Below are positions 5,001 to 26,491 of a stretch of DNA of 58,462 nucleotides, in pieces. Under the pieces are notes generated by a model. The model was not told the DNA's origin. It worked only from the letters and a program-made list of their open reading frames with translations, and did not search any database. Position 1 is the first letter of the stretch; each line of letters starts with the position of its first letter. A program made the translations under genes and the position numbers. Source of the DNA: a bacterium (GTDB taxonomy: Bacteria; Patescibacteriota; Patescibacteriia; JAZDGP01); NCBI GenBank assembly GCA_043806935.1, contig JAZDGP010000003.1:1-58462 (forward strand), in the 5' to 3' direction.

Positions 5001-5043
5001 ATATGGCTACAGCTTAGCGCAAAATGATATATTTGGTAAGTTG

Positions 5044-5084
5044 ACGAAAAACAAAAAGTCTCTGGCGATTAGGCAAGAGACTTT
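5044..5084 (-). terminator. Rho-independent terminator after the 375-aa lipoprotein gene
   Basis: 9-bp stem aaagtctct (5055-5063) / agagacttt (5076-5084). On the minus strand it is followed by ttgtttttcg. Confidence 0.6.
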
Positions 5085-5102
5085 AAGCGGACTTATTCAA
5101 AA

Positions 5103-6230: not shown

Positions 6231-6373
6231 CTTACTTACCTCCCTAAAAGTTTATTCTTGAAGTTAACAAACTACAAAAATAAACGGTTTTTATTAAATG
6301 TCCAACTTCTTGTTTTAACAAGCATATAAAACCTAGCAAAAAAAAAGGTTTTGTCAATAGCACCAAGTATTGG

Positions 6374-6382
6374 TTATCCACA
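6374..6382 (+). promoter_or_regulatory. Perfect DnaA-box 9-mer TTATCCACA (function unproven)
   Basis: Exact consensus in the rplA/lipoprotein intergenic region. It is paired with an inverted one-mismatch box, tgtggatat, at 6421-6429. Confidence 0.35.
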
Positions 6383-6456
6383 TTATGGCTAATATTAGCA
6401 AAGATCAATACATTATTGATTGTGGATATTTCTACTAATGGCTTATTTTGTAAAGA

Positions 6457-7137: not shown

Positions 7138-7195
7138 AATAGTAATGGTTAAGAGGTAATAACGATCTTAAAGATCTCCCTCAATTGTTAATATA

Positions 7196-7636
7196 TTAAA
7201 CTTCGTCCCGTTCCCTTTTGACCAGACGCCAGTGAGTGAGATACAGAATCGCTCCAATTACCACATAAGGAACACTGTCCACCAGTCTCCGTTGCTGTTC
7301 TCTCTTTGGCTGTGTAGCGTCATATTCTTTCTGTTCCCGCTCCCAAGTCTGGTAATCTTTTTGCCACTTGCTTAAAGCTAGTTGTTCCTCATTAGACAGC
7401 TGTTTATTATCCTTGCACTTGTTAGCCACTTCTTGGCAACCAATAAAAGCTTCACCAGTCTTAGAATAAAAAGCTGGCTCTGGAGGACGGGACGGATAGG
7501 CTCTATCCAAATCAGGGAAGAACACCAGCCTCAAAGAAGCATTAAGAATCACTCCCAAAGAAATAGCGAACATGATGAGGCCGACAAAAGTCACCAGGTA
7601 AAGATAAATCGTTTTAATGACTGACTTCAAAGCCAT
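7196..7636 (-). CDS. Two-TM membrane protein inserted between rplK and rplA
   Basis: The ATG at 7636 is 1 nt after the rplK stop (TAATATG). Hydrophobic helices at both ends flank a charged, Lys/Glu/Gln-rich central loop. The track ORF starts 9 nt earlier at a TTG. Confidence 0.6.
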   Translation of the reverse strand: MALKSVIKTIYLYLVTFVGLIMFAISLGVILNASLRLVFFPDLDRAYPSRPPEPAFYSKTGEAFIGCQEVANKCKDNKQLSNEEQLALSKWQKDYQTWEREQKEYDATQPKREQQRRLVDSVPYVVIGAILYLTHWRLVKRERDEV

Positions 7637-7637
7637 A

Positions 7638-8060
7638 TTATTCAATGGTTACGCCCATCTGTCTGGCTGTGCCAGCAATGGATTTCATGGCTGCTTCCAA
7701 GGAACCAGCGTTCATGTCCACCATTTTCTTCTGGGCGATCTCTTTAACTTGAGATTTTGTTAATTTACCAACTTTCTCCGTGTTTGGCTTGCCAGACCCT
7801 TTCTGGATACCAGCCATTTTAATGATCAAAGCGGAGGCGGGAGGAGTTTTTAAAACAAAAGAAAACGACCTGTCTTCATAAACAGTAACCACCACTGGCG
7901 TGGTTTCTCCCGGATTGTTCTTAGTGGCGTCGTTAAACTGAGTGCAGAATTGCTGCATGTTAATGCCATGAGGGCCTAAAGCAGTTCCTACTGGAGGAGC
8001 AGGAGTGGCTTTAGTGCCAGGAATCACTAGCTTCACTTGTGCTTTAATCTTCTTAGCCAT
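7638..8060 (-). CDS. rplK: 50S ribosomal protein L11
   Basis: 140 aa beginning [39 protein letters not shown], a canonical L11 N-terminal domain. Confidence 0.95.
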
Positions 8061-11393: not shown

Positions 11394-11840
11394 ATGCCAG
11401 TAATTGCCATTAACAAACAAGGGCTGCGCGAATATGAGGTTCTGGAGACGATCCAGGCTGGTATTGTGCTGTCTGGACCAGAGGTTAAGTCAACAAAGGC
11501 TGGGAATGTATCATTACGGGGTAGTTACGTGGATATTAAAGGCAACGGGGTTTATTTGATCAACTGCCACATCGCTTCGTATAAGACAGCCAAAGGCCAG
11601 CAGGTTGGCTATGTTCCTACCCATACTAGGAAACTATTGCTCCGTAACAAACAGATACTGGAATTGCAGGACAAGAAGAAAGCGTACGGAGCGACCATTA
11701 TCCCCCAGTCCGTTGAAACCAAAGGCAGTTTAGTCAAGGTTATGATCGCTCTAGCTAGAGGTTTAGGAAAACGGGACAAGAGGTTGAAGATCAAAAAGAA
11801 GGAAGTGGAACGGGAAATGCGGAGAGCTTTAAAACAGTAA
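11394..11840 (+). CDS. smpB: SsrA-binding protein SmpB
   Basis: 148 aa with YEVLETIQAGIVLSGPEVKS and a basic C-terminal tail. A tmRNA gene lies about 450 bp away. Confidence 0.9.
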   Translation: MPVIAINKQGLREYEVLETIQAGIVLSGPEVKSTKAGNVSLRGSYVDIKGNGVYLINCHIASYKTAKGQQVGYVPTHTRKLLLRNKQILELQDKKKAYGATIIPQSVETKGSLVKVMIALARGLGKRDKRLKIKKKEVEREMRRALKQ

Positions 11841-11872
11841 AACCGAGGTCTTGTTAGATCTCGGTTACTTTA
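11841..11872. terminator. Bidirectional terminator between smpB and the 92-aa ORF
   Basis: 9-bp stem within ccgaggtcttgttagatctcgg (11843-11864) with T/A-rich flanks on both strands. Confidence 0.6.
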
Positions 11873-11876
11873 ACAC

Positions 11877-12155
11877 TTATGATTGAACGAATGGGGTTTG
11901 AGAAAAAGTCTCTACTTTATCTAAAATTTTTTGAGCAGCCAAGTATACTCCGTTATGCTGAATTTCTTTATTAACTTCACAAATTAACTTAGAAACTATT
12001 TCTAACCCTTTCTCCAATTGTCCTTGCGCCACCTTCATCACTACTATCCCTTGAACGGGACTTGATATTTCTTCATCTGAATCTTGGATCTTTAAATCAA
12101 CAAAGTTGGAATGGTTAGGGCCTAAGACGACGATGAGTTTAAAAAATTTGTTCAT
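11877..12155 (-). CDS. Hypothetical 92-aa protein between smpB and ssrA
   Basis: Strong SD GGGAGGA 5 nt upstream of the ATG, and no TM segment. I recognise no family. Confidence 0.55.
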   Translation of the reverse strand: MNKFFKLIVVLGPNHSNFVDLKIQDSDEEISSPVQGIVVMKVAQGQLEKGLEIVSKLICEVNKEIQHNGVYLAAQKILDKVETFSQTPFVQS

Positions 12156-12253
12156 GATTTCCTCCCTTATTCTTTATTGTTTTGTCCACAACACTGTGTT
12201 GTGAATAGTACATGTCTACCATATCTAAAAATATCTGTCAACAAGTAATTAAT

Positions 12254-12280
12254 AAACAAAAAACACCTCTTACAAGGTGT
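12254..12280 (-). terminator. Rho-independent terminator of ssrA
   Basis: Minus-strand hairpin acacct-tgtaag-aggtgt followed by tttttgtttatt, directly after the tmRNA CCA end. Confidence 0.7.
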
Positions 12281-12281
12281 T

Positions 12282-12662
12282 TGGTGGAGATGGGGGGACT
12301 TACACCCCCGTCTTACCTGTCTGACAACAGCTTCTACCAACATAGTCCGTCTTATATTCTTACTGTTCAGACAAAGAAACGGACAACCGTCTGGCAGCGC
12401 AATCCGGATAATACGTTCCCAGTTGCCGGACATGGCTGGAAACGGCTCGCTGAATGGCACCCGGCTCCGGCATAGCGAGTATCCACCGGACGGATGGTCT
12501 TCACGTTAAGCGAAGACGGAAACCGGCTGGAGAACACGCAAGGCGTTCTTCAAGCTGGCGAAAACGTTTTTGACGTTTTTTGGTTTAGTAAGTTTTACGA
12601 GTTAACCGGCTCGGTTGGCAGCTAGTTGTCAAAGAACAGCGTAATCAATCTAGGACATCCCC
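12282..12662 (-). ncRNA. ssrA: tmRNA (SsrA), 381 nt
   Basis: The 5' GGGGATG pairs with the 3' CATCTCC-A-CCA, including a G3:U pair. T-arm is GGGGG-TGTAAGT-CCCCC. A PK1-like CCGAGCCGGTTAACTCGTAAAA resembles E. coli CCGAGGGGCGGTTGGCCTCGTAAAAA. The tag frame ends GTC TTC GCT TAA with the stop in the loop of hairpin GTCTTC...GAAGAC. Confidence 0.9.
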
Positions 12663-13867: not shown

Positions 13868-13895
13868 AAAAACAGAGGCTTTAGTCTCTGTTTTA
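13868..13895. terminator. Bidirectional terminator between rplT and the DUF4956 gene
   Basis: Stem aaacagag (13870-13877) / ctctgttt (13886-13893) with a T-run after it on the plus strand. Confidence 0.6.
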
Positions 13896-13906: not shown

Positions 13907-14614
13907 TTAATACTCCACGTAATTTTCCGTGGACACCAAGGATACGCGGTCATATGATCCTTGAGCAGCCAAAGCATCCAATAATTTCTTCTCACTCCCC
14001 TTACCTGTCAACTTCACTCTATAGACCACTTCCAATAAATTCTGGTCTTCATAAACAGTGGTGAAATTATTTAAACTATACTCTTTGGCAACCGCGTTCA
14101 GCAAAGAATCCAGATCGCTTTTATCAAAAGAGTCTTTCTTAACCCTAATAGTCAAAAAATACTGGCTATTGGTGAACAAACCGTAATTAGCTCTGTTTAA
14201 ATAGTAAACGGCCAGAAGGCTCAATAAAGTGCCCACAATGGCAATATGGTAATTCTGGGTGCCTACCATCATGCCGACGGCTAAAGACAGAAAAAGGAAC
14301 ATAATATCCTTCGGATCTTTAATAGCGGTGCGAAAACGGATAATAGACAAAGCGCCTACCAATCCAAAGGCTCTAGCTAAATTGCTTCCAATGGTCAGCA
14401 TCACCAAAGCGGTAATAATCGCCAACACAACTAACGACACGACGAATGAAGAAGAATACGAGGTGCCGCTAAAGGTCTTCTGGTACACCCAAGACAGCAG
14501 CAGACCAAGTCCAAATGTCAAAACCACCACCAATACGACAGCTTCAACCGAAATACTGGAAGTCGTCATTTCTTGAAAAACTTTTTGTCCAATAGCCTGC
14601 AGATAATCATTCAT
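13907..14614 (-). CDS. DUF4956-type polytopic membrane protein
   Basis: Family-like block GALSIIRFRTAIKDPKDIMFLF and several TM helices. The ATG at 14614 is 1 nt after the VTC gene stop (TAATATG). Confidence 0.75.
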   Translation of the reverse strand: MNDYLQAIGQKVFQEMTTSSISVEAVVLVVVLTFGLGLLLSWVYQKTFSGTSYSSSFVVSLVVLAIITALVMLTIGSNLARAFGLVGALSIIRFRTAIKDPKDIMFLFLSLAVGMMVGTQNYHIAIVGTLLSLLAVYYLNRANYGLFTNSQYFLTIRVKKDSFDKSDLDSLLNAVAKEYSLNNFTTVYEDQNLLEVVYRVKLTGKGSEKKLLDALAAQGSYDRVSLVSTENYVEY

Positions 14615-14615
14615 A

Positions 14616-15320
14616 TTATTTCTGTGAGTTAAAAATAAGCTTAGACATGGCAAGTGTGTATTTGCTTAAGGCTCGCCGTTCCAAATTATATGTTCTAATA
14701 GCGTCAAGGAAATAAACTGGCAGCAAATGCTCGCACTTTATTTCCATGATCACTTGGTCACCCACCGGTCTGACCAATAACCCTTTAGTGTACAAGTCAT
14801 GATCCGCGGAGGCCCTAATATTAGAATCAAAGGATACCTTAAACTTAATAAATTTGTCCAGTAGCGATATACGGCTATAACGGACGACTGTTTGCGGAGT
14901 CAGACGGTACCACCGGAACATAAACCAAAGCTTGCGGAAAAATTTATCAGTAAAGGTGGAAGGAGAGGGATTGGAAAAATGGTTAATAACATTTGATATC
15001 ATGGCTGTTGGCAGTATTTCTCGTTCTTTGTAAATCTTATCAAACGGTTTGAGTTTTAATTCCATATAAACATCCTTGCCAGGCTCGTCCCCATAAGTCC
15101 GCAATCGAACTTTTTGCCGATCAGCAGTACCAGCTACCTTCTCGTGGTAGAAAGTCAATGTTGGGGAATCAAAATAAAGAGAACGGACAGTGTAAGGTTT
15201 GCTACCCACGTTAGGAGCGTCTAAGACGCAAAATTTAGAAAAATAAGACATCAGCTCAAAAGCGACATGTGAAGGCAATAAGTATTTATATTCAAACCTT
15301 GAAAATTTTAAATGTTTCAT
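14616..15320 (-). CDS. VTC-domain (triphosphate-tunnel, polyphosphate-polymerase-like) protein
   Basis: FSRFEYKYLL N-terminus, then YTVRSLYFDSP and RQKVRLRTYG...VYMELKLK, as in VTC/CYTH tunnel domains. Confidence 0.75.
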   Translation of the reverse strand: MKHLKFSRFEYKYLLPSHVAFELMSYFSKFCVLDAPNVGSKPYTVRSLYFDSPTLTFYHEKVAGTADRQKVRLRTYGDEPGKDVYMELKLKPFDKIYKEREILPTAMISNVINHFSNPSPSTFTDKFFRKLWFMFRWYRLTPQTVVRYSRISLLDKFIKFKVSFDSNIRASADHDLYTKGLLVRPVGDQVIMEIKCEHLLPVYFLDAIRTYNLERRALSKYTLAMSKLIFNSQK

Positions 15321-15325
15321 AAATA

Positions 15326-18300
15326 TTATCTGCTTACGTTAATTTGAGGATACCTACGAATCAATTCATTAGTGGGAATAGTTAGCAAAATAACGGATGA
15401 ATCGCTATCATGGTCAGAAACAGCCTTATTTTGCTCCATTGTTGAATTAATGTCAGTAAGAATACCGCCGCTCACAAATCTGCGTTTCTTCAAATACGCG
15501 TGCAAAGCCATACGATTGTTTTTAAAAACATTATTCACGGACACAGCTGTTGATCCGTCCTTTGACTGAATGCCAATATCACAACCTTCAAAAACGTTGT
15601 CAAAAATATAAATATGAGAAGATTCCCCCACGCTCACGCATTTGTCTCCAGATTTATTCACGGTATTCCCGTAAATCTTAGAGTTATCTGATGACACGTC
15701 AATTGAATCATTGCCATTGTCTTCAAACTGGTTGGAGAAAATCAGGCTTCCTGGCTTGGCAAAATCAAAATCAATAGCGTCGAAGCTATTTTTCTGAAAC
15801 AAAGATTTGGATATATTACAAATAGTATTCTTGCAGTTCAAACTGTCATCTCCTGTGTTCATTCGAAAAATTGAATTTGTCACAGTCAATTCCTTGGCCA
15901 TATGCGCGGTCAAGGATCCTGTGTATTCTTGTCCCATCAAATAAGCGCTCCCGCCTTTTTCAAAGACTGTATATTCAAACACGCCAGAGGATTCAGTCCC
16001 CCGCAACAGCACTACTCCCCACGGTTCCTTATCATCTTTCTCCGTTGTAAACCGTATCTGTTTGTCACTAGTCCCTTTCGCTATAATCGACCCATAGGAA
16101 ACCATGCTAACGGCTGGCTTAAACCGAATGACAGTGCCAGCCGGAATCCGCACTGTCACACCGGCTGGGATAAGAATATCTTCAGTCATGACTGGTGGAT
16201 TGTTACGGAATGTAAACAACGTTGGATCGCTTTTGTCTCTTTTAACAAAAGATTTATATTCTTTAGCGAACTTTTCTGGCGTTTGTTTACGCAATGCGTC
16301 ATACAGCTGTTCGTCATCCAAATCCACGCTCTCCAAACGTACATCAGTTAATTGCACTGTAGGATCAACAGTAACGTTAGGATGTAATTTCTTGACCACA
16401 AACGTTGAAGCATTCTTCACAACCGTCCCTTTTATCGCCACTTCAGTAAACGGACCTTCAGCCAACACCACCGTCCCTCTAATATTTTCAATCTGTCCGC
16501 CTTCAATCCTAGCCTTGGTCTCCAATAACCTGTAACAATTATCCAAATAATCACGGCAGGTAATACCACTCATAACAGCATAACTATCACTCATTGTTAC
16601 TCCAGTTTTGCCGCCGCTGAAATCAGTATTAATGACTTCCAACATGCAGTTATCACAACTAATATTGTCTAAATTCTTAGAAAAGTGGCTGTCATACACG
16701 CCGAGAAACACTAGATTCTCTCCAGACACGGCTCCTTGCTTATCATTAACTGTTCCGCTGATATTTGCAAATGCCACAACGCCACCAGCCTTAATCCACA
16801 TTCCAAACCAAGCTGGCAGATCTTCTTTATTAGAAAATACTACAGGGCGAACGGATGTCCCAGCCGCAATCACGACATCAGTAGTAATCTTGGCTAAAGG
16901 CCAGATCCGTAGCTCCACACCAGGCTCTAGCAACAACACCGCATTGTCTAGCACTAAATCCTCAGTTACTTCAAACCGCTGCCCTGCTGGCAGTATATAC
17001 GCTTTAGGGCGTTCTTTAACTAATTTGTCTACCAATGACTGGCGACTGCCAGTTAAACTAACGGCTTGGAGATAAGCTGGATGATTAAGAACATCTACTC
17101 CTCTCCCTGCCTGGTAACGGCTTATTGTCTTTTGATTCAATTCATTACCAATTATTGGCGGAGTATATTCTTGAAAAAACTCCCCTCTTGTTTCACTCAA
17201 CTTCGCTCCTTTATAAAACAAAGATACCATGTAATCTAACGGATATGGCCAAAGAGTTGGATCAATAGAACAGGTAAAATCAAAAACTGGATACAAATTA
17301 TTTGTCTGCACGCACTTACTAGAAATCACTTGTACATTCCATCCGTTAGGATCAAGTGTGATTGGTTCATGCTCGCTATCCATCGGATAGAGAAAATCAA
17401 CTGTTAATTTCTGCTTATATGGCTCATTAATTAATGGTTGAGTTGTAACTATAACCCGCGGATAAGGATCTTTCACCGCTTCAAGATTATCGCCGGTAAC
17501 AGCATTCTCCACGATGAACATAAGTTTATCAGCAGAAGGCATCTCTCCCTTGCCTTTCCAAACGTAATGGTAGAGATATGGCTCAGGAATCACTCTAATA
17601 CCATTCTTAGTCAAACTATAATCTCCTGGTTCGCTAACACGGACCATTTGGGCAGATATGATCCGTTCTTTATCCTGCCACCACGGAGGATTAACATTCA
17701 CCCACTGGTCAGTACAATTGACCGTACCGCAATAAATCGCCTGCAGCTTAACCGGAACATAAGTAGGATTCCACATTCCTAAATATGGATTTCTGTCTTG
17801 ATCAAAAAAATAGTTCCAATGGATCGACGCTAATCTTAACTGATTTTCTAAGTACCAATTTCTCACTTCAGCCCAACCGCGAATTCGTTCCACTGAAGCG
17901 CAATATCCGTTAATGTCTCCCGGAATATTCCACATATGAGTCGCTTGCAGCAAAGCTTTTCCAAAGTTAGGATAACGCCTGGCTTGGCCGCAACTGTAAT
18001 TATCAAAAAGATTTGAAATGATATTTGGTTCCAATATCTGTTTCCGCATTTTATTTAATTCCAGCAAATACTCATGTACAAACGTAGGATTGCGGAAAAA
18101 ATATCCAGATATGTAATTTAAATTGACAAACGGAGAATTATCCATGTCAATAAGGCCGCTTAAATCATACAGAACAGGATGCCAACGGACGTTTTTCTCT
18201 TTGTCTTGAGTGGCGGCAAATACTAAATTATGAGTATCCATATGGCTTGAACCAAAAACTGTATTAAGAGTCAAATACCGTAAATAATCAGGCAAGACAA

Positions 18301-19057
18301 ACTTTGTATTTAAACGATCTGGAATGGATTGAATATCTTTATCCACAGCCATCAAAAATGGCTGCAAGAGCTTTATAAATTCTCCTTTCAGATCTTTTAT
18401 TGATTTATTCCTTGTCTTCCATACACTGGTAAAAAACCGTTCCTGGCGATCTGGGGCATAACGCTGAGCCAAAGCTAGGTCCCGCCATTCCACATTGTCC
18501 TCTTCCCGGACAGTATTAAACAATCTATCTTCCCAAGAAATCATAATATCGTCCCGTTTTCCATTAATGTAAACTAATCTTGACGATGGAACGTAATCAG
18601 TAAACTGTCTGGCAATAGTGTATATAGCATGTTCAGTAAACACCTGAGCAAAACCAGTGACATATGGTAATAATGGGTAAACTTCCGAGCCAAGAGATTT
18701 TAAACGAAGATTATGGCCATTGTATTCCATTCGTAATGATCTTGAACCAAGTGCGTGGAAATGAGGAGAACATCGCCCAGACAACTTTACGCTAACCTTC
18801 CCTTTGCTTTGTATATCATAATAATCAATCCAATCAAAAGCGCCTGTGCCACAGCCCCACTCAGGCAACACTTGGGCGTCTAAATAACTGTCAATCAAAG
18901 ACGGTAACAGTGGTATATTTAGTGACTGAATTTGCCGAGACAGGCCGTTGATCCTGAAATAAACAAACAGTCCTATAAATAAAACTATAATAACTAATGG
19001 GGTGCGCAAGGAGCGAATGCGTAAATTAGACAAAAATTCCTTTGGTTTTTCTAACAT
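15326..19057 (-). CDS. Membrane-anchored CotH-like kinase domain fused to parallel beta-helix modules (1243 aa)
   Basis: N-terminal TM (LVIIVLFIGLFVYF). CotH-like block SSHMDTHNLVFAATQDKEKNVRWHPVLYDLSGL at 18152-18244. The C-terminal half has two beta-helix-like modules, for example NSFDAIDFDF...NGNDSIDVSSDNSKIYGNTVNKSGDKCVSVGESSHIYIFDNVF. The ATG at 19057 was chosen because the track start lies inside an upstream terminator hairpin. Confidence 0.7.
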   Translation of the reverse strand: MLEKPKEFLSNLRIRSLRTPLVIIVLFIGLFVYFRINGLSRQIQSLNIPLLPSLIDSYLDAQVLPEWGCGTGAFDWIDYYDIQSKGKVSVKLSGRCSPHFHALGSRSLRMEYNGHNLRLKSLGSEVYPLLPYVTGFAQVFTEHAIYTIARQFTDYVPSSRLVYINGKRDDIMISWEDRLFNTVREEDNVEWRDLALAQRYAPDRQERFFTSVWKTRNKSIKDLKGEFIKLLQPFLMAVDKDIQSIPDRLNTKFVLPDYLRYLTLNTVFGSSHMDTHNLVFAATQDKEKNVRWHPVLYDLSGLIDMDNSPFVNLNYISGYFFRNPTFVHEYLLELNKMRKQILEPNIISNLFDNYSCGQARRYPNFGKALLQATHMWNIPGDINGYCASVERIRGWAEVRNWYLENQLRLASIHWNYFFDQDRNPYLGMWNPTYVPVKLQAIYCGTVNCTDQWVNVNPPWWQDKERIISAQMVRVSEPGDYSLTKNGIRVIPEPYLYHYVWKGKGEMPSADKLMFIVENAVTGDNLEAVKDPYPRVIVTTQPLINEPYKQKLTVDFLYPMDSEHEPITLDPNGWNVQVISSKCVQTNNLYPVFDFTCSIDPTLWPYPLDYMVSLFYKGAKLSETRGEFFQEYTPPIIGNELNQKTISRYQAGRGVDVLNHPAYLQAVSLTGSRQSLVDKLVKERPKAYILPAGQRFEVTEDLVLDNAVLLLEPGVELRIWPLAKITTDVVIAAGTSVRPVVFSNKEDLPAWFGMWIKAGGVVAFANISGTVNDKQGAVSGENLVFLGVYDSHFSKNLDNISCDNCMLEVINTDFSGGKTGVTMSDSYAVMSGITCRDYLDNCYRLLETKARIEGGQIENIRGTVVLAEGPFTEVAIKGTVVKNASTFVVKKLHPNVTVDPTVQLTDVRLESVDLDDEQLYDALRKQTPEKFAKEYKSFVKRDKSDPTLFTFRNNPPVMTEDILIPAGVTVRIPAGTVIRFKPAVSMVSYGSIIAKGTSDKQIRFTTEKDDKEPWGVVLLRGTESSGVFEYTVFEKGGSAYLMGQEYTGSLTAHMAKELTVTNSIFRMNTGDDSLNCKNTICNISKSLFQKNSFDAIDFDFAKPGSLIFSNQFEDNGNDSIDVSSDNSKIYGNTVNKSGDKCVSVGESSHIYIFDNVFEGCDIGIQSKDGSTAVSVNNVFKNNRMALHAYLKKRRFVSGGILTDINSTMEQNKAVSDHDSDSSVILLTIPTNELIRRYPQINVSR

Positions 19058-19081
19058 AAAATCATCATAACAAACCAAGAG

Positions 19082-19115
19082 GAAAAAGCAAACCACCCCG
19101 ACTTGGGGTGGTTTG
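19082..19115 (-). terminator. Rho-independent terminator after the GY-repeat protein gene
   Basis: 11-bp stem caaaccacccc (19089-19099) / ggggtggtttg (19105-19115). The minus strand continues ctttttcc. Confidence 0.7.
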
Positions 19116-19135: not shown

Positions 19136-20374
19136 TTAACGGTTAATGTATAGCTGGTAATCCTTGCTGTTCTTCCAAGCTGACCATGGTAATTTAGGAT
19201 GTACAGTCTTGCCTCCCCATTTTAATGCTTTAACAACTGCTTCAACCGGATAACCGCCATAGATGTAGGAATTGACTACAGTGCTCCAATTCTTTGCTGA
19301 AATCTTTATCTTTCCCTTTCCATACACCTTCTCTAATGCTGTTTTTAGTTCAACTGCCATCTGTTTCTCTTGAGCCAAGGACTTTAGTCTAGCTTTGCCA
19401 AAAGCGAATGTTCCTGATTTAAGGCTCAAACCGCCTGCTGGAGTGCTGATTCTTGCTTGATCAAATGCTGGATCATAGATAGCTAATGGGCTGGAAGTAA
19501 TGGCTGTTTCTCCTACAGCTGGAGTACCGCTCTGCCCACCGCTTATGTAAGCCCCACCGCCACCACCACTACTTGAGCCAGAAGATCCTGCTCTGGAAGC
19601 AGCAAATGTTGATGCGCTGGTCGTTGTAAATGAACAGATACTGCTAGAAACCGTACAGGTTGTCAATAATACAGTGGAACTATCAACTGCGGAATACTTA
19701 TAAACATTAAGTGTTTGGCCATTAAAGGAACTACCTACCGTCATAGTGAGAGTAATTGGCTGGCTAAACGTCAATCCTATATTTGATAGGCCATACTCTA
19801 AAGCCTCACCAATCTGATTCTGGCCGCTTGGCAGAGTAGTCAAGGTACCGCTAGCTGTTTGCCGTAATTGATTTAAGTTCATTGTTCCGCCTCCTGTCCT
19901 GGTAATCGTGGTACCTGACGGAATTGCCACTGAATAAGTTCCTGTGCTAGTGGTAGCCGAGAAAGTAATCGGGATATTGAATGTGGCGGCAGTGGCGGCA
20001 TCAACTGATCCAGTGATGCTTGCTAATCCAGCAGCAAAAATTGAAGCGATGGTGTCCCCAGTCGAATCTGTTACCGTAACTGTGGTAGTCGTATAACCAC
20101 CATCACCAGAAGTCGTTAACAGGAAACCATAACCGTAACCATAGCCATATTCTCCATCAAATGAGGCGGTATCCATCCGGTAGCTTAAAGCGGCAACTCC
20201 ATAACCATAGCCGTAACCATAACCATAGCCATAACCCCACCCCTCGTCACCTGTATTTCTGCTAAATTCAGCCAATACCTTACCACCGCCCATAAATAGA
20301 GAAACGATCAGCAATAATGAAACGTAAGCAAAGTAACCTTTTTCTTGAATGAACCCATTTAATGAACTTCCCAT
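19136..20374 (-). CDS. Secreted or anchored protein with Gly-Tyr repeats, a Thr/Ser-rich core and a conserved C-terminal module
   Basis: N-terminal hydrophobic segment, GWGYGYGYGYGYGYGV and EYGYGYGYGF repeats, a T/S-rich middle, the hinge GGGGGAYISGGQ, and C-terminal VVNSYIYGGYPVEAVVKALKWGGKTVHP. Confidence 0.7.
   Translation of the reverse strand: MGSSLNGFIQEKGYFAYVSLLLIVSLFMGGGKVLAEFSRNTGDEGWGYGYGYGYGYGYGVAALSYRMDTASFDGEYGYGYGYGFLLTTSGDGGYTTTTVTVTDSTGDTIASIFAAGLASITGSVDAATAATFNIPITFSATTSTGTYSVAIPSGTTITRTGGGTMNLNQLRQTASGTLTTLPSGQNQIGEALEYGLSNIGLTFSQPITLTMTVGSSFNGQTLNVYKYSAVDSSTVLLTTCTVSSSICSFTTTSASTFAASRAGSSGSSSGGGGGAYISGGQSGTPAVGETAITSSPLAIYDPAFDQARISTPAGGLSLKSGTFAFGKARLKSLAQEKQMAVELKTALEKVYGKGKIKISAKNWSTVVNSYIYGGYPVEAVVKALKWGGKTVHPKLPWSAWKNSKDYQLYINR
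20127..20240 (-). repeat. Two blocks of imperfect hexanucleotide (GGN TAY) repeats encoding (GY)n
   Basis: Plus-strand ccataaccgtaaccatagccatat (20127-20149) and ccataaccatagccgtaaccataaccatagccataacc (20199-20238). Confidence 0.9.
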
Positions 20375-20391: not shown

Positions 20392-20643
20392 TTAGTTTTT
20401 ATTATGTTCATTATAAACTATATTGTTCTGTTCTACAACAAGATGAGTTATCCACAGGTCAAAAATAATCATTAAAAACAATGTTCGTGCTAAAACCACT
20501 GTGAATTTAAAGAAAATAGCATCTAATCCCCAATATTTTACAGCTAATGCAAAAAATAAAGTCGCAACACCCCAAACTAAGATTGTCAATCTATTGTAAA
20601 ATCCAAATCCGTGATACCAATCAGATGTTTGTTTATATTCCAT
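20392..20643 (-). CDS. Small membrane protein (83 aa)
   Basis: Two to three hydrophobic helices. It overlaps the upstream gene by 11 nt and is part of the overlapping operon chain. Confidence 0.5.
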   Translation of the reverse strand: MEYKQTSDWYHGFGFYNRLTILVWGVATLFFALAVKYWGLDAIFFKFTVVLARTLFLMIIFDLWITHLVVEQNNIVYNEHNKN

Positions 20644-21493
20644 AACTGTCTTTATTTATTTGTTTAGTTAGCCGCAAATCTTCATCATGCATTGACCATA
20701 AGACATGGGTAATCCGCACAACTATTAAGTAGAACAACACTCTAGCCACTGTCTCAGCTGCTTTCAATTCTCCAACAGCCACAAGAACAGCCAGTGAAAT
20801 CAGCGCCAGAATCAACAATCGTGCCACCAACCGATCAAACCAAGGATAAACACGGTAACCAATAATAGCGCCTATGACCAACGTCTGCCACACAGATCGC
20901 GACCACCAGTACATTAGCAGTATCACTAACCAGACAAGACCATACCGCCGGCCAATCGGCAAAAACCATCGAATGAAGCGCGTAGCGCCTCTTTTTACCT
21001 GAACAATAATTATTTTAATAATCTCCGCTGATAATCTTCCAATCCTCCATACAAAACCAACAAAAATTATAATCGTGATTACTGTTCGTACTAAGAACCG
21101 TTTTAAAACAGACACAAAATCAAACCTAACCGCCTTAATCATTCTATAAAACCATTCACGCAACATAGACCATTTTGGCCATGCAAAACGCGGATTTATT
21201 AACTGTCTTAACAATTCACCTTTATTATTTCTTAACCATTCTATCCATCCACCGGCATACAGTTTAAAACCATGGCAAATCAGGCCTACTGTTTGCAAAA
21301 AACGAACCAAGCCAAATTGGCAATCACGGCCATAGCGCGCCAACAGCCACAGCCCAAACACAACTGCCACGTCCAACCACAGCCAACGGACAAGCCGGGA
21401 CTCGTCTAAAACAAAAGTGGACCCCAATACCAACAGCACCACGGTTCCCAAAACCATCGTGCCTGCCTGTAGTGAAGAATCCTTCTTATCCAT
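20633..21493 (-). CDS. Polytopic membrane protein (286 aa), unknown family
   Basis: Multiple Trp/Arg-rich TM helices. It overlaps the upstream GT4 gene by 8 nt. Confidence 0.55.
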   Translation of the reverse strand: MDKKDSSLQAGTMVLGTVVLLVLGSTFVLDESRLVRWLWLDVAVVFGLWLLARYGRDCQFGLVRFLQTVGLICHGFKLYAGGWIEWLRNNKGELLRQLINPRFAWPKWSMLREWFYRMIKAVRFDFVSVLKRFLVRTVITIIIFVGFVWRIGRLSAEIIKIIIVQVKRGATRFIRWFLPIGRRYGLVWLVILLMYWWSRSVWQTLVIGAIIGYRVYPWFDRLVARLLILALISLAVLVAVGELKAAETVARVLFYLIVVRITHVLWSMHDEDLRLTKQINKDSYGI

Positions 21494-22736
21494 TTGCTAA
21501 ACGAGCTGGTAAATAATCATACTTGCGCATATCCTGTTTTGGATCATCCAAGAACGCTGTAATTACATTATGCTCATATTCCGTAACTAACGGATTGTCA
21601 AACAGCTCAGCCAACTGACGATATTTATTTTTCTGTTCCTCTGTTGGTTCGTGTCTTAATGCGTCCACCACTTGCGCAACTAATAGATTAGCATCTCCTG
21701 GTTCACTATATTTTAAATAATCACCGTAAAGAGCATGCACTCCCCTGCTTTTGGTCGCTACAACAGGCTTCCGTTGGGAAAGGTAAATGATTATTTTTCC
21801 GCATTCAGCGGTGTCAGCGGTTGGAGTAAGCAAAAAAGGAGCGACACCGACATCAGCTAAATTAATATACTTGTATAAATCTTCATATGGCAACCACCCA
21901 ATAAACGTAAACCGTTCCATTAGTCCAATCTTCTGTATCCTTTGTTTCAACGACTCTACGTAATGTGGCAATCCCTTGCCAATCACCACGAACTGGACGT
22001 TCGGTATCTCTCCTACGATCCGAGGAGAAGCGTCAATCAAAGTCTCCAGACCGTCAATCATTGAGATGTCTCCAGCGTACATCACCACCTTCTTGCCTTC
22101 CAAACCGTATTGCTCTAACAATTTCTGGTCCTTCATCTCTGACACTGGAAACCTATTAATATAAATCCCATTAGGAATGGTAACACACTGTTCCGCACTC
22201 ACTCCAAGCCCAGCCATCAAATCCCGCTGAACTGGAGTATCAACGAACAGTAAATCCACTCTCCGCAATCCGATCCTTTCCAAAAACTTAATGATTGGAC
22301 AGACAAACCAAGCGAATGGATAACCAAAACTCTTATACAAATCATAATAAATGTCGTAAATGGAAGAAATAAAAGGAATATGCCGCTTCCATGGTATCAA
22401 TTGCAGCAACAAACCCATGTGCGTTTGTTCTCCACGGATATATCCTGGATTTTCCCTGCTTACATATCGCCATAACGCCACATACAGATTAGCCAAACCC
22501 AACAACCGCTGAAACAAAGAATATTGCTTTTTAAATCTATACTTGTATGTGAAGTAGTGAATCTTTGTTTCTATCTCCGCTGGGAAATGATCCTTGTTTT
22601 GAGGAGCGACAATATCAATCCGGTCGTAATGCTGGTAAAGGTGGCTGATGTACACCTGACAGCGATACGGACGATCATACGACGGGACAGCTGTCTCGTT
22701 AAACAACAGGATGTGACGGCGTTGAGTACTTTCCAT
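21486..22736 (-). CDS. Glycosyltransferase, GT4-like (GT-B fold)
   Basis: Length and the C-terminal half (VVMYAGDIS...VQFVVIGKG...ADVGVAPF...GKIIIYLSQRKPVVAT) fit the GT1/GT4 retaining family. Confidence 0.7.
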   Translation of the reverse strand: MESTQRRHILLFNETAVPSYDRPYRCQVYISHLYQHYDRIDIVAPQNKDHFPAEIETKIHYFTYKYRFKKQYSLFQRLLGLANLYVALWRYVSRENPGYIRGEQTHMGLLLQLIPWKRHIPFISSIYDIYYDLYKSFGYPFAWFVCPIIKFLERIGLRRVDLLFVDTPVQRDLMAGLGVSAEQCVTIPNGIYINRFPVSEMKDQKLLEQYGLEGKKVVMYAGDISMIDGLETLIDASPRIVGEIPNVQFVVIGKGLPHYVESLKQRIQKIGLMERFTFIGWLPYEDLYKYINLADVGVAPFLLTPTADTAECGKIIIYLSQRKPVVATKSRGVHALYGDYLKYSEPGDANLLVAQVVDALRHEPTEEQKNKYRQLAELFDNPLVTEYEHNVITAFLDDPKQDMRKYDYLPARLANG

Positions 22737-25605
22737 ACAAATATTCTCTTAATGATACTAGCAGTATAACGGCCAAATAATAAAAGAGGAAATAATAAGT
22801 GAAACGCCGCCACCAACTGTGAATCTCTACAGGCGCGAACACCAAACGCGAAACCTCTTCAGTTGTCTCCCCGTCTACCAAAAAATAATTATTGCCAAAA
22901 TCCATCAAGACTGGTAACTGGTCTGTCTGTCCTTTCAACCGCCAATTAGAGTCAGGCGGTTCCGCTAACTTCAACAAGCCTTGTTTTTGATCAGTTCCAC
23001 CTAATTTCAATTCAACAATGTTATCCGGCATTAGAATCCTGTAATCAATCTTTGACTCCGACACTGGCGCTACTTTTTCTTTTTTTAAACTAGCCAAAAA
23101 TTCATCCACAATTTTTTGTTTCTGCTGGTATAGTCCTTCAGGGACAACAGCAAAATCAGTTATTGCGTTAAAACCGTTTGAATTGATCAGCTCCAGTTTT
23201 TGCCCTGCAATATTCTTTGCGTCATACGAGCCAAGGTACGTCCAATAAAAATCGCTCTGCTTGCTCTCTGTTGAAATCAGCACACCTTCGCCAAACACAC
23301 CGCCACGTAACGTAATCGCTTGTTTGCCAGGCTGCCGGAACGTCTTAAGGTACACCCTTGCCCTCCCGTTAACCGTTGGCATTTCAGAAACCATAAATTG
23401 CTGAATGGCTTTTTTCTCATCTGTTCTTAGGAATCTGCCGCTTGCAAACCCAGGATCAAAACCGTAAAAACGCATATAATAAGGAATCCAGAGATGGGAA
23501 GAAAGAAAATCCTCTAACCATTGCGACACCAGTCCGTCTGTTGTTCGACGTGGACGTATCATATAAGGCCGCATTGTGTCTAGCGCTAAAATAAAATCAT
23601 CATTACCTTTGCCGTTAGCATAATAAACAGCGTTGAAATAACTTTTAAAAGAAGTTATCATGTGTTCAGGGATAGTAAAATATTCTGGGAACAACACAGT
23701 GCCTGTAGTCGGAATCACTTTACGAAATTCACTGCCAAACGATCCAAAATACACGCCAACCTTAGAAAGTTTATTAACATAGCCGTCTGCCTCCTTATTT
23801 TCATACACAGTCAGCTGTCCAAACCGAGCTACTGGCTGGAAACGGTCGTTATTGGCAAAAAACAGAACATGTTGGTCATATCTCTGTCTGTCCACCTCAT
23901 TGCCGTCAATTACAATGAACCTAATATTTAAATTACGCAGCAAGTAAGCTGTCTCTGCGGGATCAGCATGGCCAGTTTCAATTTGTGCTTTAAGATAGTG
24001 ATACAGAAAACCATGCGTGGCGGTCATGGGAATAAAAACCTTTCCTTCAGCGATCCAGACGCTTGGGTGTGGCAATAATTGGTTATCATCTCCTCCAGCA
24101 GGGCTCCATTGGGCATCAAGATAATACGAGTAATCCCACGACGGCAGCCAGAGCACCCTTGCTCCTTGATCAATTTCTGATCTGCGTCCATTCATGTAAG
24201 CGACCGCTGTTTCATATTCCTGAGGAATACGCCTACCATTTATTAGATTAAAAAATTCTTTATTAGCTAAAATCGTAGTGGAGACCAATGGCAATAAAAT
24301 TAACACCGCCATGATGGTAGATCGTTTTGTCACAAAATTATAAAATCTGCTAGTAGCAACACGAACATCAGATCTCCTAGCCAGACGTTGAACGACGTAT
24401 CCATAGCAAACCATGGCGCTAAATGTAATAATCGACATGTAAAAATAAGAATCTTTCACTACCCATCCTGCTTTGGCGAACACTGCATTATTAGCCAAAG
24501 CTGTTTCCAATCCAAACTCGTGGACTGAAGAAACAAAAAGCAACCCAATGGTAAATAAAATAGCGAAGCCAAAAATTCTTTTCCAGCTATCAGCCCGTGT
24601 CTTTAATGCCATAACCACTATTACAGCTCCTACACCCAAAGCCACAAACACATAAAGCAACGGGTAAGAACTTTCAAACAACTGGTCAAAATTATAATAA
24701 CTAGTTCCAAGTAAATTATTAAGAAAACTTGCCCGTTTGGCCAAAAATCGCAACACGCTAGCAGTGGTAGCCGTCTCCCATCCGGCGCGCAATTCCACTT
24801 CTTGCCCGAACATCGCCACTAACAAATAAACAGCTAACGGAAGATAAACCACAACCATTGCTAACACGTATACGAAAAATCTCCACCATACAGCCAGAAA
24901 CTTCTTATACCTAACCCATAGCCAATACAAAAGCAGCCAACCGATCACCAAAGTGTTAATCAAAATGTAATGTGGTGAAATATTGGAAAAAAACAGCACT
25001 ACCGCCAAAAGAATAGAATAAAGCAATTTCCTCCAAATACGGCTTTGGTTAATCATCTGGTAAACGCAAATAACTACCCATGGTAGCAGCGCGTACCCAA
25101 CCAAGATTGACCAATGTACGATCTTAAGAAAAAAATAGAATGAAAAAGCGTACCCTACTCCACCAGCAATCGCCCCCCAATAAGGATAATCGCCATTTTC
25201 CTCTTTTGATAATATCTTAACCAGCCGGTAAATCCCGTATGAACTCAAAACAATCAACGCAAAGAAAAAAACAAGCTGGGCTATCCGCGTTGACGGAAAC
25301 AGCTTCAACAAGTTAATGACGGGCATCAACGATATATAATAGTAATTATTGTTGCCAAATTGGTAGTTAAATAAACTATCTGTATTATTACCAAGCAACG
25401 CGACATTGCTATGCATCCGAAAATCCTCAAACTCCAACAGCCCTCCGCCAAACACCAAATTCTGGAAAAAATAAAGATACCCGGCGATGTCTAAAAGCAA
25501 CAACGCCACGACTGGAGCCCACGGCCGCGACCAGAATGGACGAATATAATTAATTAATGCTCGTATCATGTTTATTCTTCTTGGCGATAATAAAACAGCT
25601 GTCAT
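22699..25605 (-). CDS. Large GT-C-like (YfhO/AftD-like architecture) integral membrane glycosyltransferase candidate
   Basis: About 430 aa of tightly packed TM helices, a roughly 500-aa soluble domain and a final C-terminal TM helix (YYFLFYYLAVILLVSL). There is an alternative start at 25569 (MIRALINYIRPF). It shares ALLPW-type motifs with CDS 29434-31152. Confidence 0.55.
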   Translation of the reverse strand: MTAVLLSPRRINMIRALINYIRPFWSRPWAPVVALLLLDIAGYLYFFQNLVFGGGLLEFEDFRMHSNVALLGNNTDSLFNYQFGNNNYYYISLMPVINLLKLFPSTRIAQLVFFFALIVLSSYGIYRLVKILSKEENGDYPYWGAIAGGVGYAFSFYFFLKIVHWSILVGYALLPWVVICVYQMINQSRIWRKLLYSILLAVVLFFSNISPHYILINTLVIGWLLLYWLWVRYKKFLAVWWRFFVYVLAMVVVYLPLAVYLLVAMFGQEVELRAGWETATTASVLRFLAKRASFLNNLLGTSYYNFDQLFESSYPLLYVFVALGVGAVIVVMALKTRADSWKRIFGFAILFTIGLLFVSSVHEFGLETALANNAVFAKAGWVVKDSYFYMSIITFSAMVCYGYVVQRLARRSDVRVATSRFYNFVTKRSTIMAVLILLPLVSTTILANKEFFNLINGRRIPQEYETAVAYMNGRRSEIDQGARVLWLPSWDYSYYLDAQWSPAGGDDNQLLPHPSVWIAEGKVFIPMTATHGFLYHYLKAQIETGHADPAETAYLLRNLNIRFIVIDGNEVDRQRYDQHVLFFANNDRFQPVARFGQLTVYENKEADGYVNKLSKVGVYFGSFGSEFRKVIPTTGTVLFPEYFTIPEHMITSFKSYFNAVYYANGKGNDDFILALDTMRPYMIRPRRTTDGLVSQWLEDFLSSHLWIPYYMRFYGFDPGFASGRFLRTDEKKAIQQFMVSEMPTVNGRARVYLKTFRQPGKQAITLRGGVFGEGVLISTESKQSDFYWTYLGSYDAKNIAGQKLELINSNGFNAITDFAVVPEGLYQQKQKIVDEFLASLKKEKVAPVSESKIDYRILMPDNIVELKLGGTDQKQGLLKLAEPPDSNWRLKGQTDQLPVLMDFGNNYFLVDGETTEEVSRLVFAPVEIHSWWRRFTYYFLFYYLAVILLVSLREYLYGKYSTPSHPVV

Positions 25606-26491
25606 GGCCGCGAGTGATCATCTCCACCACAGTCAACAAAGCAATACACATATTACTTAAAAGAAAATTTAACTTCAAGCCGTACCTTCCGGACAAATAC
25701 AAATAAACGCTGCTGGACAAACTGCCGGAATTATACAACTTACTTTTCACAATCTGGTAACCTGCTTTTTCCAACAAGAAACATAAAGACCGCTGGTTAA
25801 AAAGGTACAAATGCCTAGGAGCGTCTAAAGACGACCAATGCTCATGAAACACCCGTAACAGCCAAGAATCGCTGGACGGCACGGCTAATGCCAACACACC
25901 GCCATCTTTTAACACTCTATTGATCCCCCTCAAATACCGTAATGGATCATCCAGGTGTTCAAAGACATGCCAAGCCCTAACAATATCAAAAGATCCTGTT
26001 TCCAGCTCCTCTAACGAACAAAACATCTTCAAGCTATTAGTTTTCCCTCTTGCTACAGCCAGCTCGGAAAACTCCACTCCGCATGCTTCAACTTTGTCTG
26101 AACCAACAATTCTAAGCACTGTTCCGGCTCCACATCCAAAATCCAAAAACTGAACATTTCCTCTAGGATAACCACCGATTGTGCTCCAACCGCTGACGCC
26201 GTCTTGAAACCCGATATTTAACCAAGACAATAATCTGTAGATTAACAACCGAACCTTATAAAAAACGTTTAACGACCCGGAATAGGAGTAATAATCATCC
26301 TGGTAAAAAGCGGAGATTGCTTCAGGTGTTGGTAATGGTTCAATAACGCCAACACCGCACTGCTGACAGCGCGTGTACTGATAACTCCCACCTTGCTTTG
26401 ACCTGTAATCAGGAGCAACTATCCAATCAATCCACTGTCTACCACCGCAAATCCTGCAAGCAGATGTCTCCCGCGCAACCTCACTTATCAT
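25550..26491 (-). CDS. Class I SAM-dependent methyltransferase with an N-terminal zinc ribbon
   Basis: CRICGG...CQQCG pairs followed by the SAM motif FLDFGCGAGTVL. Confidence 0.75.
   Translation of the reverse strand: MISEVARETSACRICGGRQWIDWIVAPDYRSKQGGSYQYTRCQQCGVGVIEPLPTPEAISAFYQDDYYSYSGSLNVFYKVRLLIYRLLSWLNIGFQDGVSGWSTIGGYPRGNVQFLDFGCGAGTVLRIVGSDKVEACGVEFSELAVARGKTNSLKMFCSLEELETGSFDIVRAWHVFEHLDDPLRYLRGINRVLKDGGVLALAVPSSDSWLLRVFHEHWSSLDAPRHLYLFNQRSLCFLLEKAGYQIVKSKLYNSGSLSSSVYLYLSGRYGLKLNFLLSNMCIALLTVVEMITRGHDSCFIIAKKNKHDTSIN

Follow-up and report, generated by a model that had tools for sequence, protein, structure and literature searches.

Closest described systems

The closest described systems to the locus examined here are accessory gene sets of Gram-positive Pel polysaccharide loci. 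In streptococci, clostridia and bifidobacteria, cotH, "poly-phosphate polymerase", DUF4956 and DUF4832 accessory genes lie contiguous with pelDEA(DA)FG (Whitfield et al. 2020; PMC7112168). Streptococcus intermedius strains deleted for either SIR_1592 (DUF4956) or SIR_1594 (CotH) aggregate half as much in artificial sputum medium and have altered Pel levels, which rise on loss of the DUF4956 protein and shift the opposite way on loss of CotH; the synteny was reported as not found outside Pel loci (PMC12345266). Regulation by phosphorylation was suggested by the authors of the Pel work. In Clostridium perfringens, NELoc-2 carries VTC genes, each followed by one for a membrane protein, next to cotH. 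Here we describe a related trio in contig JAZDGP010000003.1 of a patescibacterial genome (assembly GCA_043806935.1), which was analysed over its whole length of 58,462 nucleotides (nt) and is referred to below as the window. The three genes encode a membrane-anchored protein with a CotH-like, kinase-fold domain and two beta-helix modules (g1), a protein with a VTC-type triphosphate-tunnel domain (g2), and a DUF4956 membrane protein (g3). The trio belongs to a conserved cell-envelope module of three components and sits in a surface-glycan biosynthesis locus. A first-pass annotation of the window, made from the DNA letters alone, knew of no assigned function for such a trio; this is still true, but the trio itself was already in the literature, in the Gram-positive Pel loci and in NELoc-2.

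Like the trio, the Pel accessory genes unite the same three contiguous Pfam families beside polysaccharide genes, with a CotH predicted to be secreted and a DUF4956 protein made up of an MgtC-like transmembrane (TM) region and an ACT domain. The present locus differs in that no Pel families were detected in the window, the gene order is CotH-VTC-DUF4956, and the host belongs to the Patescibacteria. Compared with the CotH of Pel loci, g1 is far more divergent, has a His at the position of the catalytic Asp, and carries two beta-helix modules instead of FN3 domains. In contrast to the published Pel-only synteny, the triad is present in at least six phyla.

Each component also has a relative outside these loci. 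The tunnel domain of the yeast VTC complex (3g3q, 7ytj, 8i6v) is homologous to g2 and has the same catalytic set, and both systems pair a soluble catalytic domain with a membrane component bearing conserved basic residues. In yeast the channel is lined by Lys and Arg residues that are needed for translocation. Unlike yeast VTC, g2 has neither an SPX domain nor a fused channel of three TM helices (DUF202-type), its partner is a separate MgtC-like protein with five, and its first strand reads RxExK. Bacillus CotH (5jd9/5jda) appears to be homologous in fold to g1 by profile-profile comparison (94-97%), and its HN Asn and its D251-type Asp are kept as N277 and D298. Whereas Bacillus CotH acts on spore-coat proteins, g1 is membrane-anchored, predicted to be extracytoplasmic and fused to beta-helices; it has His at the D228 equivalent, does not conserve KKSxR, and gives no direct profile match to 5jd9. 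The MgtC/SapB/YhiD proteins share with g3 about five TM helices followed by a C-terminal ACT-like domain. In contrast to MgtC, g3 belongs to DUF4956, has an invariant motif of its own, and has VTC as an obligate partner, a pairing not known for MgtC. A functional analogy only is offered by the Fam20-type kinases of the secretory pathway, which have an atypical kinase fold and modify secreted proteins or glycans outside the cytosol. The ATP that they use is imported into the Golgi lumen, and we know of no donor-supply partner like VTC/DUF4956 for them.

VTC and DUF4956 form a conserved gene pair that CotH usually joins

Across prokaryotes, the genes for VTC and DUF4956 almost always occur as a pair, and CotH joins them in about 80% of loci. 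The locus scan covered one genome per GTDB species and used two VTC peptide patterns taken from a 10-sequence alignment. At least 383 species-level loci carry a VTC of the g2 type; the best 80, which were examined, include SAR11, Planctomycetota, Ignavibacteria, Gamma- and Deltaproteobacteria, Acidobacteriota, KSB1 and Clostridia. Synteny was counted with purpose-built hidden Markov models (HMMs) applied to all open reading frames (ORFs) of the 48 loci with a flank of at least 3.5 kb on either side. DUF4956 is adjacent to VTC (within 300 nt) in 44 of these, a CotH protein lies within 1.2 kb in 38, and all three families occur together in 36. When DUF4956 was taken as the start point instead, VTC was directly upstream in 6/6 loci and CotH was found in 4/6. 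The spacing of the trio alone is ordinary for an operon; it is the conservation of the arrangement across phyla that puts the trio beyond chance, and a chance adjacency is rejected by the synteny counts (36/48 with all three). The first-pass annotation had named gene-neighbourhood conservation as a test of its proposal, and the linkage proved to be conserved across phyla.

The triad is found in Patescibacteria, a Nanoarchaeota metagenome-assembled genome (MAG), Bacteriovoracales, Clostridium, SAR11 and Planctomycetota. Single-homologue look-ups returned the order large protein-VTC-DUF4956 among glycan genes in Patescibacteria, in another bacterium and in the Nanoarchaeota MAG. Most neighbours in the gene tables that were read encode glycosyltransferases, epimerases, methyltransferases, acyltransferases, teichoic-type phosphotransferases and a NAGPA phosphodiester glycosidase. 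Two CotH lineages accompany the VTC-DUF4956 pair. The dominant one carries the C-terminal beta-helix of g1 (34 of the 38 VTC-linked CotH proteins), and a Pfam scan of 42 large VTC neighbours recovered CotH in 39 and Beta_helix in 40. The other is the Clostridia partner, a canonical CotH fused to Flg_new, LTD and CHB_HEX_C.

Several loci show individual features. SAR11 bacteria are among the most streamlined free-living bacteria. Four Pelagibacterales (SAR11) loci (L006, L009, L010 and L021) contain the CotH+beta-helix and VTC genes, with a 329-350-aa (amino-acid) Asn/Lys-rich ORF without a Pfam match downstream of VTC; DUF4956 lies about 1 kb upstream of CotH in L006 and L009, and in L010 and L021, where the upstream flanks are shorter, it was not found. 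In loci of the Kryptonia/Ignavibacteria type (L091, positions 1752-7672; L022, L007, L030, L051), VTC-DUF4956 occurs without CotH and follows a glycosyltransferase family 2 (GT2) synthase with a cyclic di-GMP (c-di-GMP)-type MshEN domain, a 527-aa protein and an HlyD-like protein of about 356-370 aa. In Clostridium culturomicium (L088, 9275-15121) the order is VTC-DUF4956-CotH, the last with LTD, CHB_HEX_C and Fn3_assoc domains. A NAGPA phosphodiester glycosidase is encoded about 1.3 kb downstream, and Glyphos_transf (a teichoic-type glycerophosphotransferase), PIG-L and acyltransferase genes lie upstream; these neighbours point to phosphodiester-linked glycan chemistry.

g2 keeps the catalytic residue set of Vtc4

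The sequence of g2, labelled 'polyphosphate polymerase domain-containing protein' by NCBI, predicts a cytoplasmic VTC-type tunnel protein that keeps the Vtc4 catalytic set. Pfam VTC (PF09359) matches it at 8.6e-29 (101 bits against a cut-off of 23) over profile positions 2-234 of 235, and no hydrophobic segment was found by hydropathy and no SPX or TM domain by Pfam, in line with the soluble tunnel domain that had been called at first reading. Since it is without the SPX sensor and the fused C-terminal 3-TM channel, g2 is better described as a VTC-domain protein than as a subunit of a VTC complex. As single-sequence queries against the PDB, g1 and g2 gave no match. A profile of 21 g2 homologues reached Vtc4 (3g3q) at 5.9e-18, ahead of Vtc2 (6.2e-8) and Vtc3 (2.4e-6).

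By residue count in the profile alignment, K12 of g2 corresponds to K200 of Vtc4, R72/R74 to R264/R266, K89 to K281, E193 to E426, and S219/K220 to S457/K458. All seven Vtc4-equivalent residues are invariant in the 21 homologues. The tunnel Lys/Arg/Glu set had been singled out beforehand as a point on which the VTC assignment could fail, and every Vtc4 residue checked is kept. The yeast VTC complex in the cryo-EM structure carries the mutant combination R264A/R266A/E426N. Further invariant residues of the prokaryotic family are R8, E10, Y43, S47, Y49, D51, R68, K70, Y76, E87, K98, R150, D165 and K195 (g2 numbering). On one contig with a 1215-aa homologue of g1 (L086, 8221-8957), VTC is split into two predicted ORFs (115 and 129 aa), which reflects either a frameshift or pseudogene or an assembly error.

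g1 combines a divergent CotH-like domain with an Asp-rich beta-helix

NCBI labels g1 only as a 'right-handed parallel beta-helix repeat-containing protein' and misses its CotH-like domain. That domain follows a single N-terminal TM helix, which is preceded by five basic residues, as expected from the N-terminal anchoring proposed at first reading. The protein is predicted to be oriented N-in/C-out with its ectodomain outside the cytoplasm, on the basis of the positive-inside rule and of nearly invariant ectodomain cysteines in the family alignment (C356, C386, C443 and C448). Two DsbA-like genes and Lgt are encoded within the window. The N-terminal 637 aa have only 18 relatives among 1.84 billion representative proteins (exhaustive phmmer), about 10 of which are proteins of 1213-1349 aa with an identical architecture.

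Evidence for the CotH assignment comes from comparisons of profiles. In hhalign, the g1 family matches 37 VTC-linked CotH+beta-helix proteins over their CotH region (96.6%, E 5.4e-10, 268 columns), and this region in turn matches Bacillus cereus CotH 5jd9 over its full length at 3.5e-36. The g1 family also aligns with canonical CotH proteins including 5jd9 (94.1%, E 1.2e-7, 313 columns). For g1 itself, Pfam CotH (PF08757) scores 24.4 bits against a cut-off of 23.8 and covers only the C-terminal half of the model. The CotH call of the first-pass annotation, marginal at first and weakly upheld by Pfam, thus became convincing at the profile-profile level, and we conclude from these alignments that g1 carries what appears to be a very divergent CotH-type domain. 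The AlphaFold2 (AF2) model of the N-terminal part has a mean predicted local distance difference test score (pLDDT) of 78 and a predicted template modelling score (pTM) of 0.83.

The catalytic loop of the CotH+beta-helix proteins was aligned with hmmalign and hhalign. In g1 the loop and metal site read SSHMDTHNLVF...VLYDLSGL, and H272, N277 and D298 are invariant within the family; the H/N/D set is invariant or nearly so across the clade. By HMMER, MAFFT and hhalign alike, H272 falls opposite the catalytic-loop Asp of Bacillus CotH (NFDGFVHN in B. cereus); N277 aligns with the HN Asn and D298 with the first Asp of the WDYD block. D274, two residues past H272, is variable. In B. subtilis CotH, D228 and D251 are sites of inactivating mutations (D228Q is inactive). 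The 23-residue D228-D251 spacing suggests that the NFD Asp is D228 and the first Asp of WDYD is D251. The first-pass annotation had doubted kinase competence on the ground that the second Asp of this block is Ser in g1 (YDLS). That concern was misplaced, as the second WDxD Asp is unconserved clade-wide (WDPxGW) and the first, D298, is invariant; the real deviation is H272. The peptide it had picked out is indeed CotH-like, although it spans 18152-18250 and not 18152-18244. In the nucleotide-binding RGx...KKSxR region of the N-lobe, G94 and S107 are kept, the Lys/Arg positions vary among g1 relatives, and an invariant K120/S124/E125 block is present instead. In a clostridial subgroup of VTC-linked CotH proteins (L079, L084, L065, L075 and L033) the loop Asp is kept (NYD) and the HN Asn is replaced by Ser (…GLSTYLY…); the loop position at which VTC-linked CotH departs from the Bacillus protein therefore differs between its two lineages.

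Two beta-helix modules had been noted in g1 from the start, and both hold up: the second by Pfam, the first, which the Pfam scan left undetected, by its match to the second (BLASTP 1e-4, 22% over 136 aa) and by family conservation. The first module is an extra copy specific to the Patescibacteria-type family of 1213-1349 aa. The C-terminal module is the part of g1 that is common to the CotH proteins of about 750-1100 aa from other phyla, and it is the best conserved (jackhmmer domain matches to about 1e-108 in a small ORF set). Its invariant residues are D1071, D1093, D1096, D1098, D1117, D1120, D1138, K1139, S1142, G1144, E1145, K1166, D1167 and K1190.

g3 is an MgtC-related membrane protein with invariant basic residues

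The polytopic DUF4956 assignment of g3 was borne out by Pfam (4e-16) and by five predicted TM helices. The AF2 model shows in addition an amphipathic helix at the N-terminus, and the Foldseek matches of its C-terminal domain include ACT domains and the C-terminal domains of MgtC (7qa5, 2lqj). g3 falls below the threshold for MgtC itself (PF02308, 19 bits against 31.4; NCBIfam PRK09977, 29 bits against 214) and is related to the MgtC family but not a member of it. DUF4956 comprises more than 3300 homologue clusters, some members of which also match MgtC, and carries the name 'YhiD-like' at the Joint Genome Institute (JGI). Its most conserved stretch is LARAFGLVGALSIIRFRTxxKDxxD, of which LARAFGLVGALSIIRFRTxxKD is the motif that sets it apart from MgtC; R93, R95 and K99 are invariant and R81 nearly so. 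Given a cytoplasmic ACT-like domain, the model would place R93, R95 and K99 at the cytoplasmic end of helix 3.

The predicted topologies of the three proteins (g1 anchored N-in/C-out, g2 soluble, g3 polytopic) match the picture drawn in the first-pass annotation, which had seen in VTC plus DUF4956 a split analogue of the yeast complex. The topology fits this idea, but DUF4956 is MgtC-like and unrelated to the 3-TM VTC channel, so that the resemblance is one of analogy only.

A donor-supply model and its alternatives

We propose a mechanism in which g2 would act at the inner membrane face and turn a nucleoside triphosphate into polyphosphate or a short phosphoanhydride donor. An oligomer of g3, analogous and not homologous to the VTC channel, would pass this donor across, and the g1 ectodomain would use it on a surface polysaccharide or glycoprotein, which the Asp-rich beta-helix would hold while it is phosphorylated or receives phosphate chains. 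This donor-supply model, in which a split VTC feeds a kinase on the outside, is put forward tentatively as a possible account of the whole. It is suggested by the fact that a kinase-fold enzyme outside the cytoplasm lacks ATP and that the sole co-encoded cytoplasmic enzyme is a polyphosphate-polymerase homologue. It is also suggested by g3, the sole membrane protein between g1 and g2, having invariant basic residues like the yeast VTC channel. The more specific version, a split prokaryotic VTC whose polymerase docks on a DUF4956 oligomer and threads polyphosphate to a His-type CotH-fold enzyme as the donor for surface glycans or glycoproteins, seems unlikely to be right in every part.

A number of observations weigh against the donor-supply model. 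The His at the catalytic Asp position is invariant throughout the beta-helix clade to which g1 belongs (consensus HxDxxHN), and the KKSxR motif of the N-lobe is unconserved in the g1 family. The CotH domain of g1 may accordingly be a pseudokinase or an enzyme of different chemistry, and because a conserved His replaces the usual catalytic Asp, any transfer chemistry may differ from that of Bacillus CotH. Pfam detects CotH in only 4/10 members of the g1 family (24.4-27.8 bits), and the family profile searched against the PDB does not reach 5jd9 and returns only noise (ferritin, antiholin). Foldseek with the N-terminal model gives weak kinase-fold matches (CtkA at 1.1e-3; aminoglycoside, choline and O-mannose kinases) together with MHC-like ones, the kinase-fold template modelling scores being at most 0.33; CotH is absent from the top 50, so that the fold is not confirmed by this route. 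The N-terminal strand of prokaryotic VTC reads RxExK, with an invariant Glu (E10 in g2), where Vtc4 has RxTxK (T198). We take ExExK to be the motif of hydrolytic CYTH enzymes, to which RxExK would be nearer than the RxTxK of Vtc4. MgtC-family proteins, as we understand them, are known as regulators and not as channels. About 20% of VTC-DUF4956 pairs have no nearby CotH (the pair stands without it in 8/48 loci). A literature search found no biochemical function or activity assay for bacterial VTC, DUF4956 or VTC-linked CotH. Finally, deletion of the S. intermedius VTC gene (SIR_1593) has no reported aggregation defect (PMC12345266), a result that a strict donor-supply chain would not predict and that thus weighs against strict linear dependence.

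Some of these observations lend themselves to a different end product. VTC and DUF4956 could be a self-sufficient synthase and exporter of surface polyphosphate, which would bind cations or cross-link cationic polymers such as Pel, with CotH as an optional part that anchors, trims or transfers it. VTC-DUF4956 is the invariant core of the module, and this arrangement would suit the loci missing CotH, among them the Kryptonia/Ignavibacteria variant with GT2-MshEN and HlyD-like proteins, as well as the replacement of the catalytic Asp in the beta-helix clade; the Asp-rich beta-helix could itself bind metal-bridged polyanions. We nevertheless regard it as improbable, as CotH, in two lineages, accompanies about 80% of loci, which argues for a tight functional link, and the HN and D metal-site residues are invariant in the g1 family, as would be expected of an active phosphotransferase; the absence of a reported phenotype for the S. 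intermedius VTC deletion speaks against a polyphosphate end product too. A regulatory module is a further alternative, and a rather unlikely one. Here VTC would be a phosphohydrolase or a sensor of triphosphate or polyphosphate, DUF4956 an MgtC-like regulator that acts on membrane energetics or phosphate signalling and senses a small molecule through its ACT-like domain, and CotH a kinase or binding protein that tunes polysaccharide export. The weak Pfam match to MgtC, the MgtC-type C-terminal domain and the 'YhiD-like' naming of homologues all fit it, as do the likeness of the invariant RxExK Glu to what is known of the hydrolytic CYTH family, the opposite Pel shifts in the S. intermedius DUF4956 and CotH deletions, which look regulatory, and the suggestion of regulation by phosphorylation from the Pel work. 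Against it, the whole Vtc4 residue set is kept and the profile is far closer to catalytic Vtc4 than to the inactive Vtc2 and Vtc3, and a kinase outside the membrane would still need a phosphoryl donor. The presence of the module in small genomes (SAR11, Patescibacteria, the Nanoarchaeota MAG) would also fit a structural envelope function better than a fine-tuning one.

The remaining alternative places the chemistry of g1 in its beta-helix, as a glycan-processing hydrolase, lyase or epimerase with a dead CotH scaffold, and explains the linkage by shared regulation within a polysaccharide locus. The C-terminal beta-helix is the best conserved part of the protein and bears an invariant acidic ladder including a GDD motif; its sole PDB sequence match, a weak one, is an alpha-1,3-glucanase (5zru, E 0.008); and the CotH domain is divergent, with its N-lobe motifs lost. 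A dead scaffold is at odds with the invariance of H272, N277 and D298 in the g1 family and with the near-invariance of H/N/D clade-wide. Moreover, the Firmicutes partner is a canonical CotH without a g1-type beta-helix, so CotH and not the beta-helix is the common denominator of the module, and we consider the glycan-processing alternative very unlikely.

Gene layout, boundaries and neighbouring genes

The features of the trio are listed in Table 1. g1, g2 and g3 are three co-directional minus-strand ORFs that form one tight block between two hairpins with T-runs, and both the close spacing and the flanking terminators of the first-pass annotation agree with our reading of the sequence. The g1 stop (TAA, 15328-15326) is separated by 5 nt from the g2 ATG at 15320, and the g2 stop (TAA, 14618-14616) by 1 nt from the g3 ATG at 14614 (junction TAATATG).

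Table 1. Features of the g1-g2-g3 locus, in the direction of transcription (positions in the window)
Feature	Position	Strand	Basis and remarks
Upstream hairpin terminator	19089..19115	-	11 pairs, 7 GC, tail CTTTTTCCTC; T-run to about 19080
g1, 1243-aa membrane-anchored protein: CotH-like domain, beta-sandwich, two beta-helix modules	15326..19057	-	ORF, Pfam, family alignment
g1 N-terminal TM anchor (predicted), aa 19-39	18941..19003	-	Hydropathy; preceded by K4, K6, R13, R15, R18
g1 divergent CotH-like (atypical kinase-fold) domain, aa 52-344	18026..18904	-	Pfam, hhalign
g1 catalytic-loop/metal-site motif	18152..18250	-	Family alignments
g1 beta-sandwich, aa ~412-530, after the kinase-like domain	17468..17824	-	AF2 strands, pLDDT mostly >85
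g1 first beta-helix module, aa ~690-900	16358..16990	-	Self-similarity to second module; family conservation
g1 C-terminal beta-helix module, aa 931-1243	15329..16267	-	Pfam Beta_helix 1.3e-9 and NosD; jackhmmer; alignment
g2, 234-aa soluble VTC (triphosphate-tunnel) domain	14616..15320	-	Pfam, profile vs Vtc4
g3, 235-aa DUF4956 (PF16316) membrane protein	13907..14614	-	Pfam 4e-16; AF2 pLDDT 84
g3 five TM helices, aa 23-141	14192-14548	-	AF2 (23-47, 55-74, 78-95, 101-118, 122-141)
g3 C-terminal ACT-like domain, aa ~150-229	13928-14167	-	AF2, beta-alpha-beta-beta-alpha-beta
Bidirectional hairpin terminator	13869..13894	both	Between g3 and convergent rplT; 3' boundary of the trio

The upstream hairpin is the terminator of the preceding 412-aa gene and the 5' boundary of the trio. 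Terminator-like sites are as frequent region-wide as in shuffled sequence, so their number is not itself significant; the two listed are credited for their location at gene ends and, for the upstream one only, for the strength of its stem. This hairpin overlaps GTG 19096, which was rejected as the start of g1. The true start is ATG 19057, giving 1243 aa, identical to the public protein MFH1145416.1 (P0034) in length and sequence. About 30 nt separate the upstream terminator from this ATG (19057-19090), no Shine-Dalgarno sequence is visible, and a TATGAT hexamer ends 6 nt ahead of the ATG. A leaderless transcript or read-through of the terminator is possible. No sigma-70 promoter for the trio was found, promoter-like matches being as frequent as in shuffled sequence.

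The 412-aa protein is encoded on the minus strand at 19136-20374 and has a hydrophobic segment near its N-terminus, GYGYGYGY repeats and extended stretches rich in Ser, Thr and Gly, with no Pfam or NCBIfam match. It could be a substrate of g1, given that Bacillus CotH phosphorylates Ser-rich repeat proteins; its gene is not conserved beside the trio in related Patescibacteria loci. The surface-glycan locus at 20633-34342 comprises two GT4, one GT9-like and one GT2 glycosyltransferase, two class-I methyltransferases and an FkbM methyltransferase, interspersed with proteins of 286, 968, 572 and 442 aa that have no Pfam match. Membership of the trio in a Pel locus was rejected, as a Pfam scan of the neighbours found no Pel family; the four neighbours without any Pfam match could hide a very divergent Pel protein. 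A role in anti-phage defence was likewise rejected, the three proteins having no PADLOC match at E <= 0.01.

Elsewhere, the window carries infC-rpmI-rplT, tmRNA, smpB, L11/L1/NusG, glycolytic genes, and DUF5671 and DUF5667 proteins, and the closest homologues of g1, g2 and g3 are annotated "Patescibacteria group". At 11394-12662, smpB (plus strand) adjoins a full-length tmRNA gene (minus strand, 100 bits) just upstream of infC-rpmI-rplT. The gene at 40981-49491 encodes a protein of 2836 aa that combines Big_5, CarboxypepD_reg and fn3 domains. The next gene (49687-53688) encodes a 1333-aa protein without a Pfam match and coincides with a rise in G+C to 0.52, against about 0.42 for the surrounding window.

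Implications for a proposed envelope phosphotransfer

The trio is not new as a gene linkage, and this locus is a Patescibacteria-type variant of it with a duplicated beta-helix and a highly divergent CotH. What is new is that the triad is widespread outside Pel loci, that its dominant architecture is CotH plus an Asp-ladder beta-helix on an obligate VTC-DUF4956 core, and that a conserved His appears, from the alignments, to take the place of the Bacillus CotH catalytic-loop Asp both in g1 and in the beta-helix clade. Even if the chemistry proves unremarkable, this breadth corrects the published view of a synteny limited to Pel loci.

VTC is treated as a eukaryotic polyphosphate polymerase, and to our knowledge none of the VTC-domain proteins of prokaryotes has been tested for function. 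If the split-VTC version of the donor-supply model is true, g2 and its relatives would be the first VTC-type polyphosphate polymerases shown in prokaryotes, and a function would be assigned to DUF4956 for the first time. A dedicated cytoplasmic synthase with a membrane partner beside g1 is a concrete candidate answer to the problem of supplying a donor outside the cytoplasm. It would, if true, be a general answer to how phosphotransfer is powered there without ATP, in organisms ranging from SAR11 through Patescibacteria to DPANN-type archaea. The module occurs in surface-glycan loci of the abundant SAR11 bacteria and of host-dependent, small-genome lineages (Patescibacteria, the Nanoarchaeota MAG), and in the Pel loci of streptococcal pathogens. 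Its product therefore probably shapes cell surfaces and biofilm matrices.

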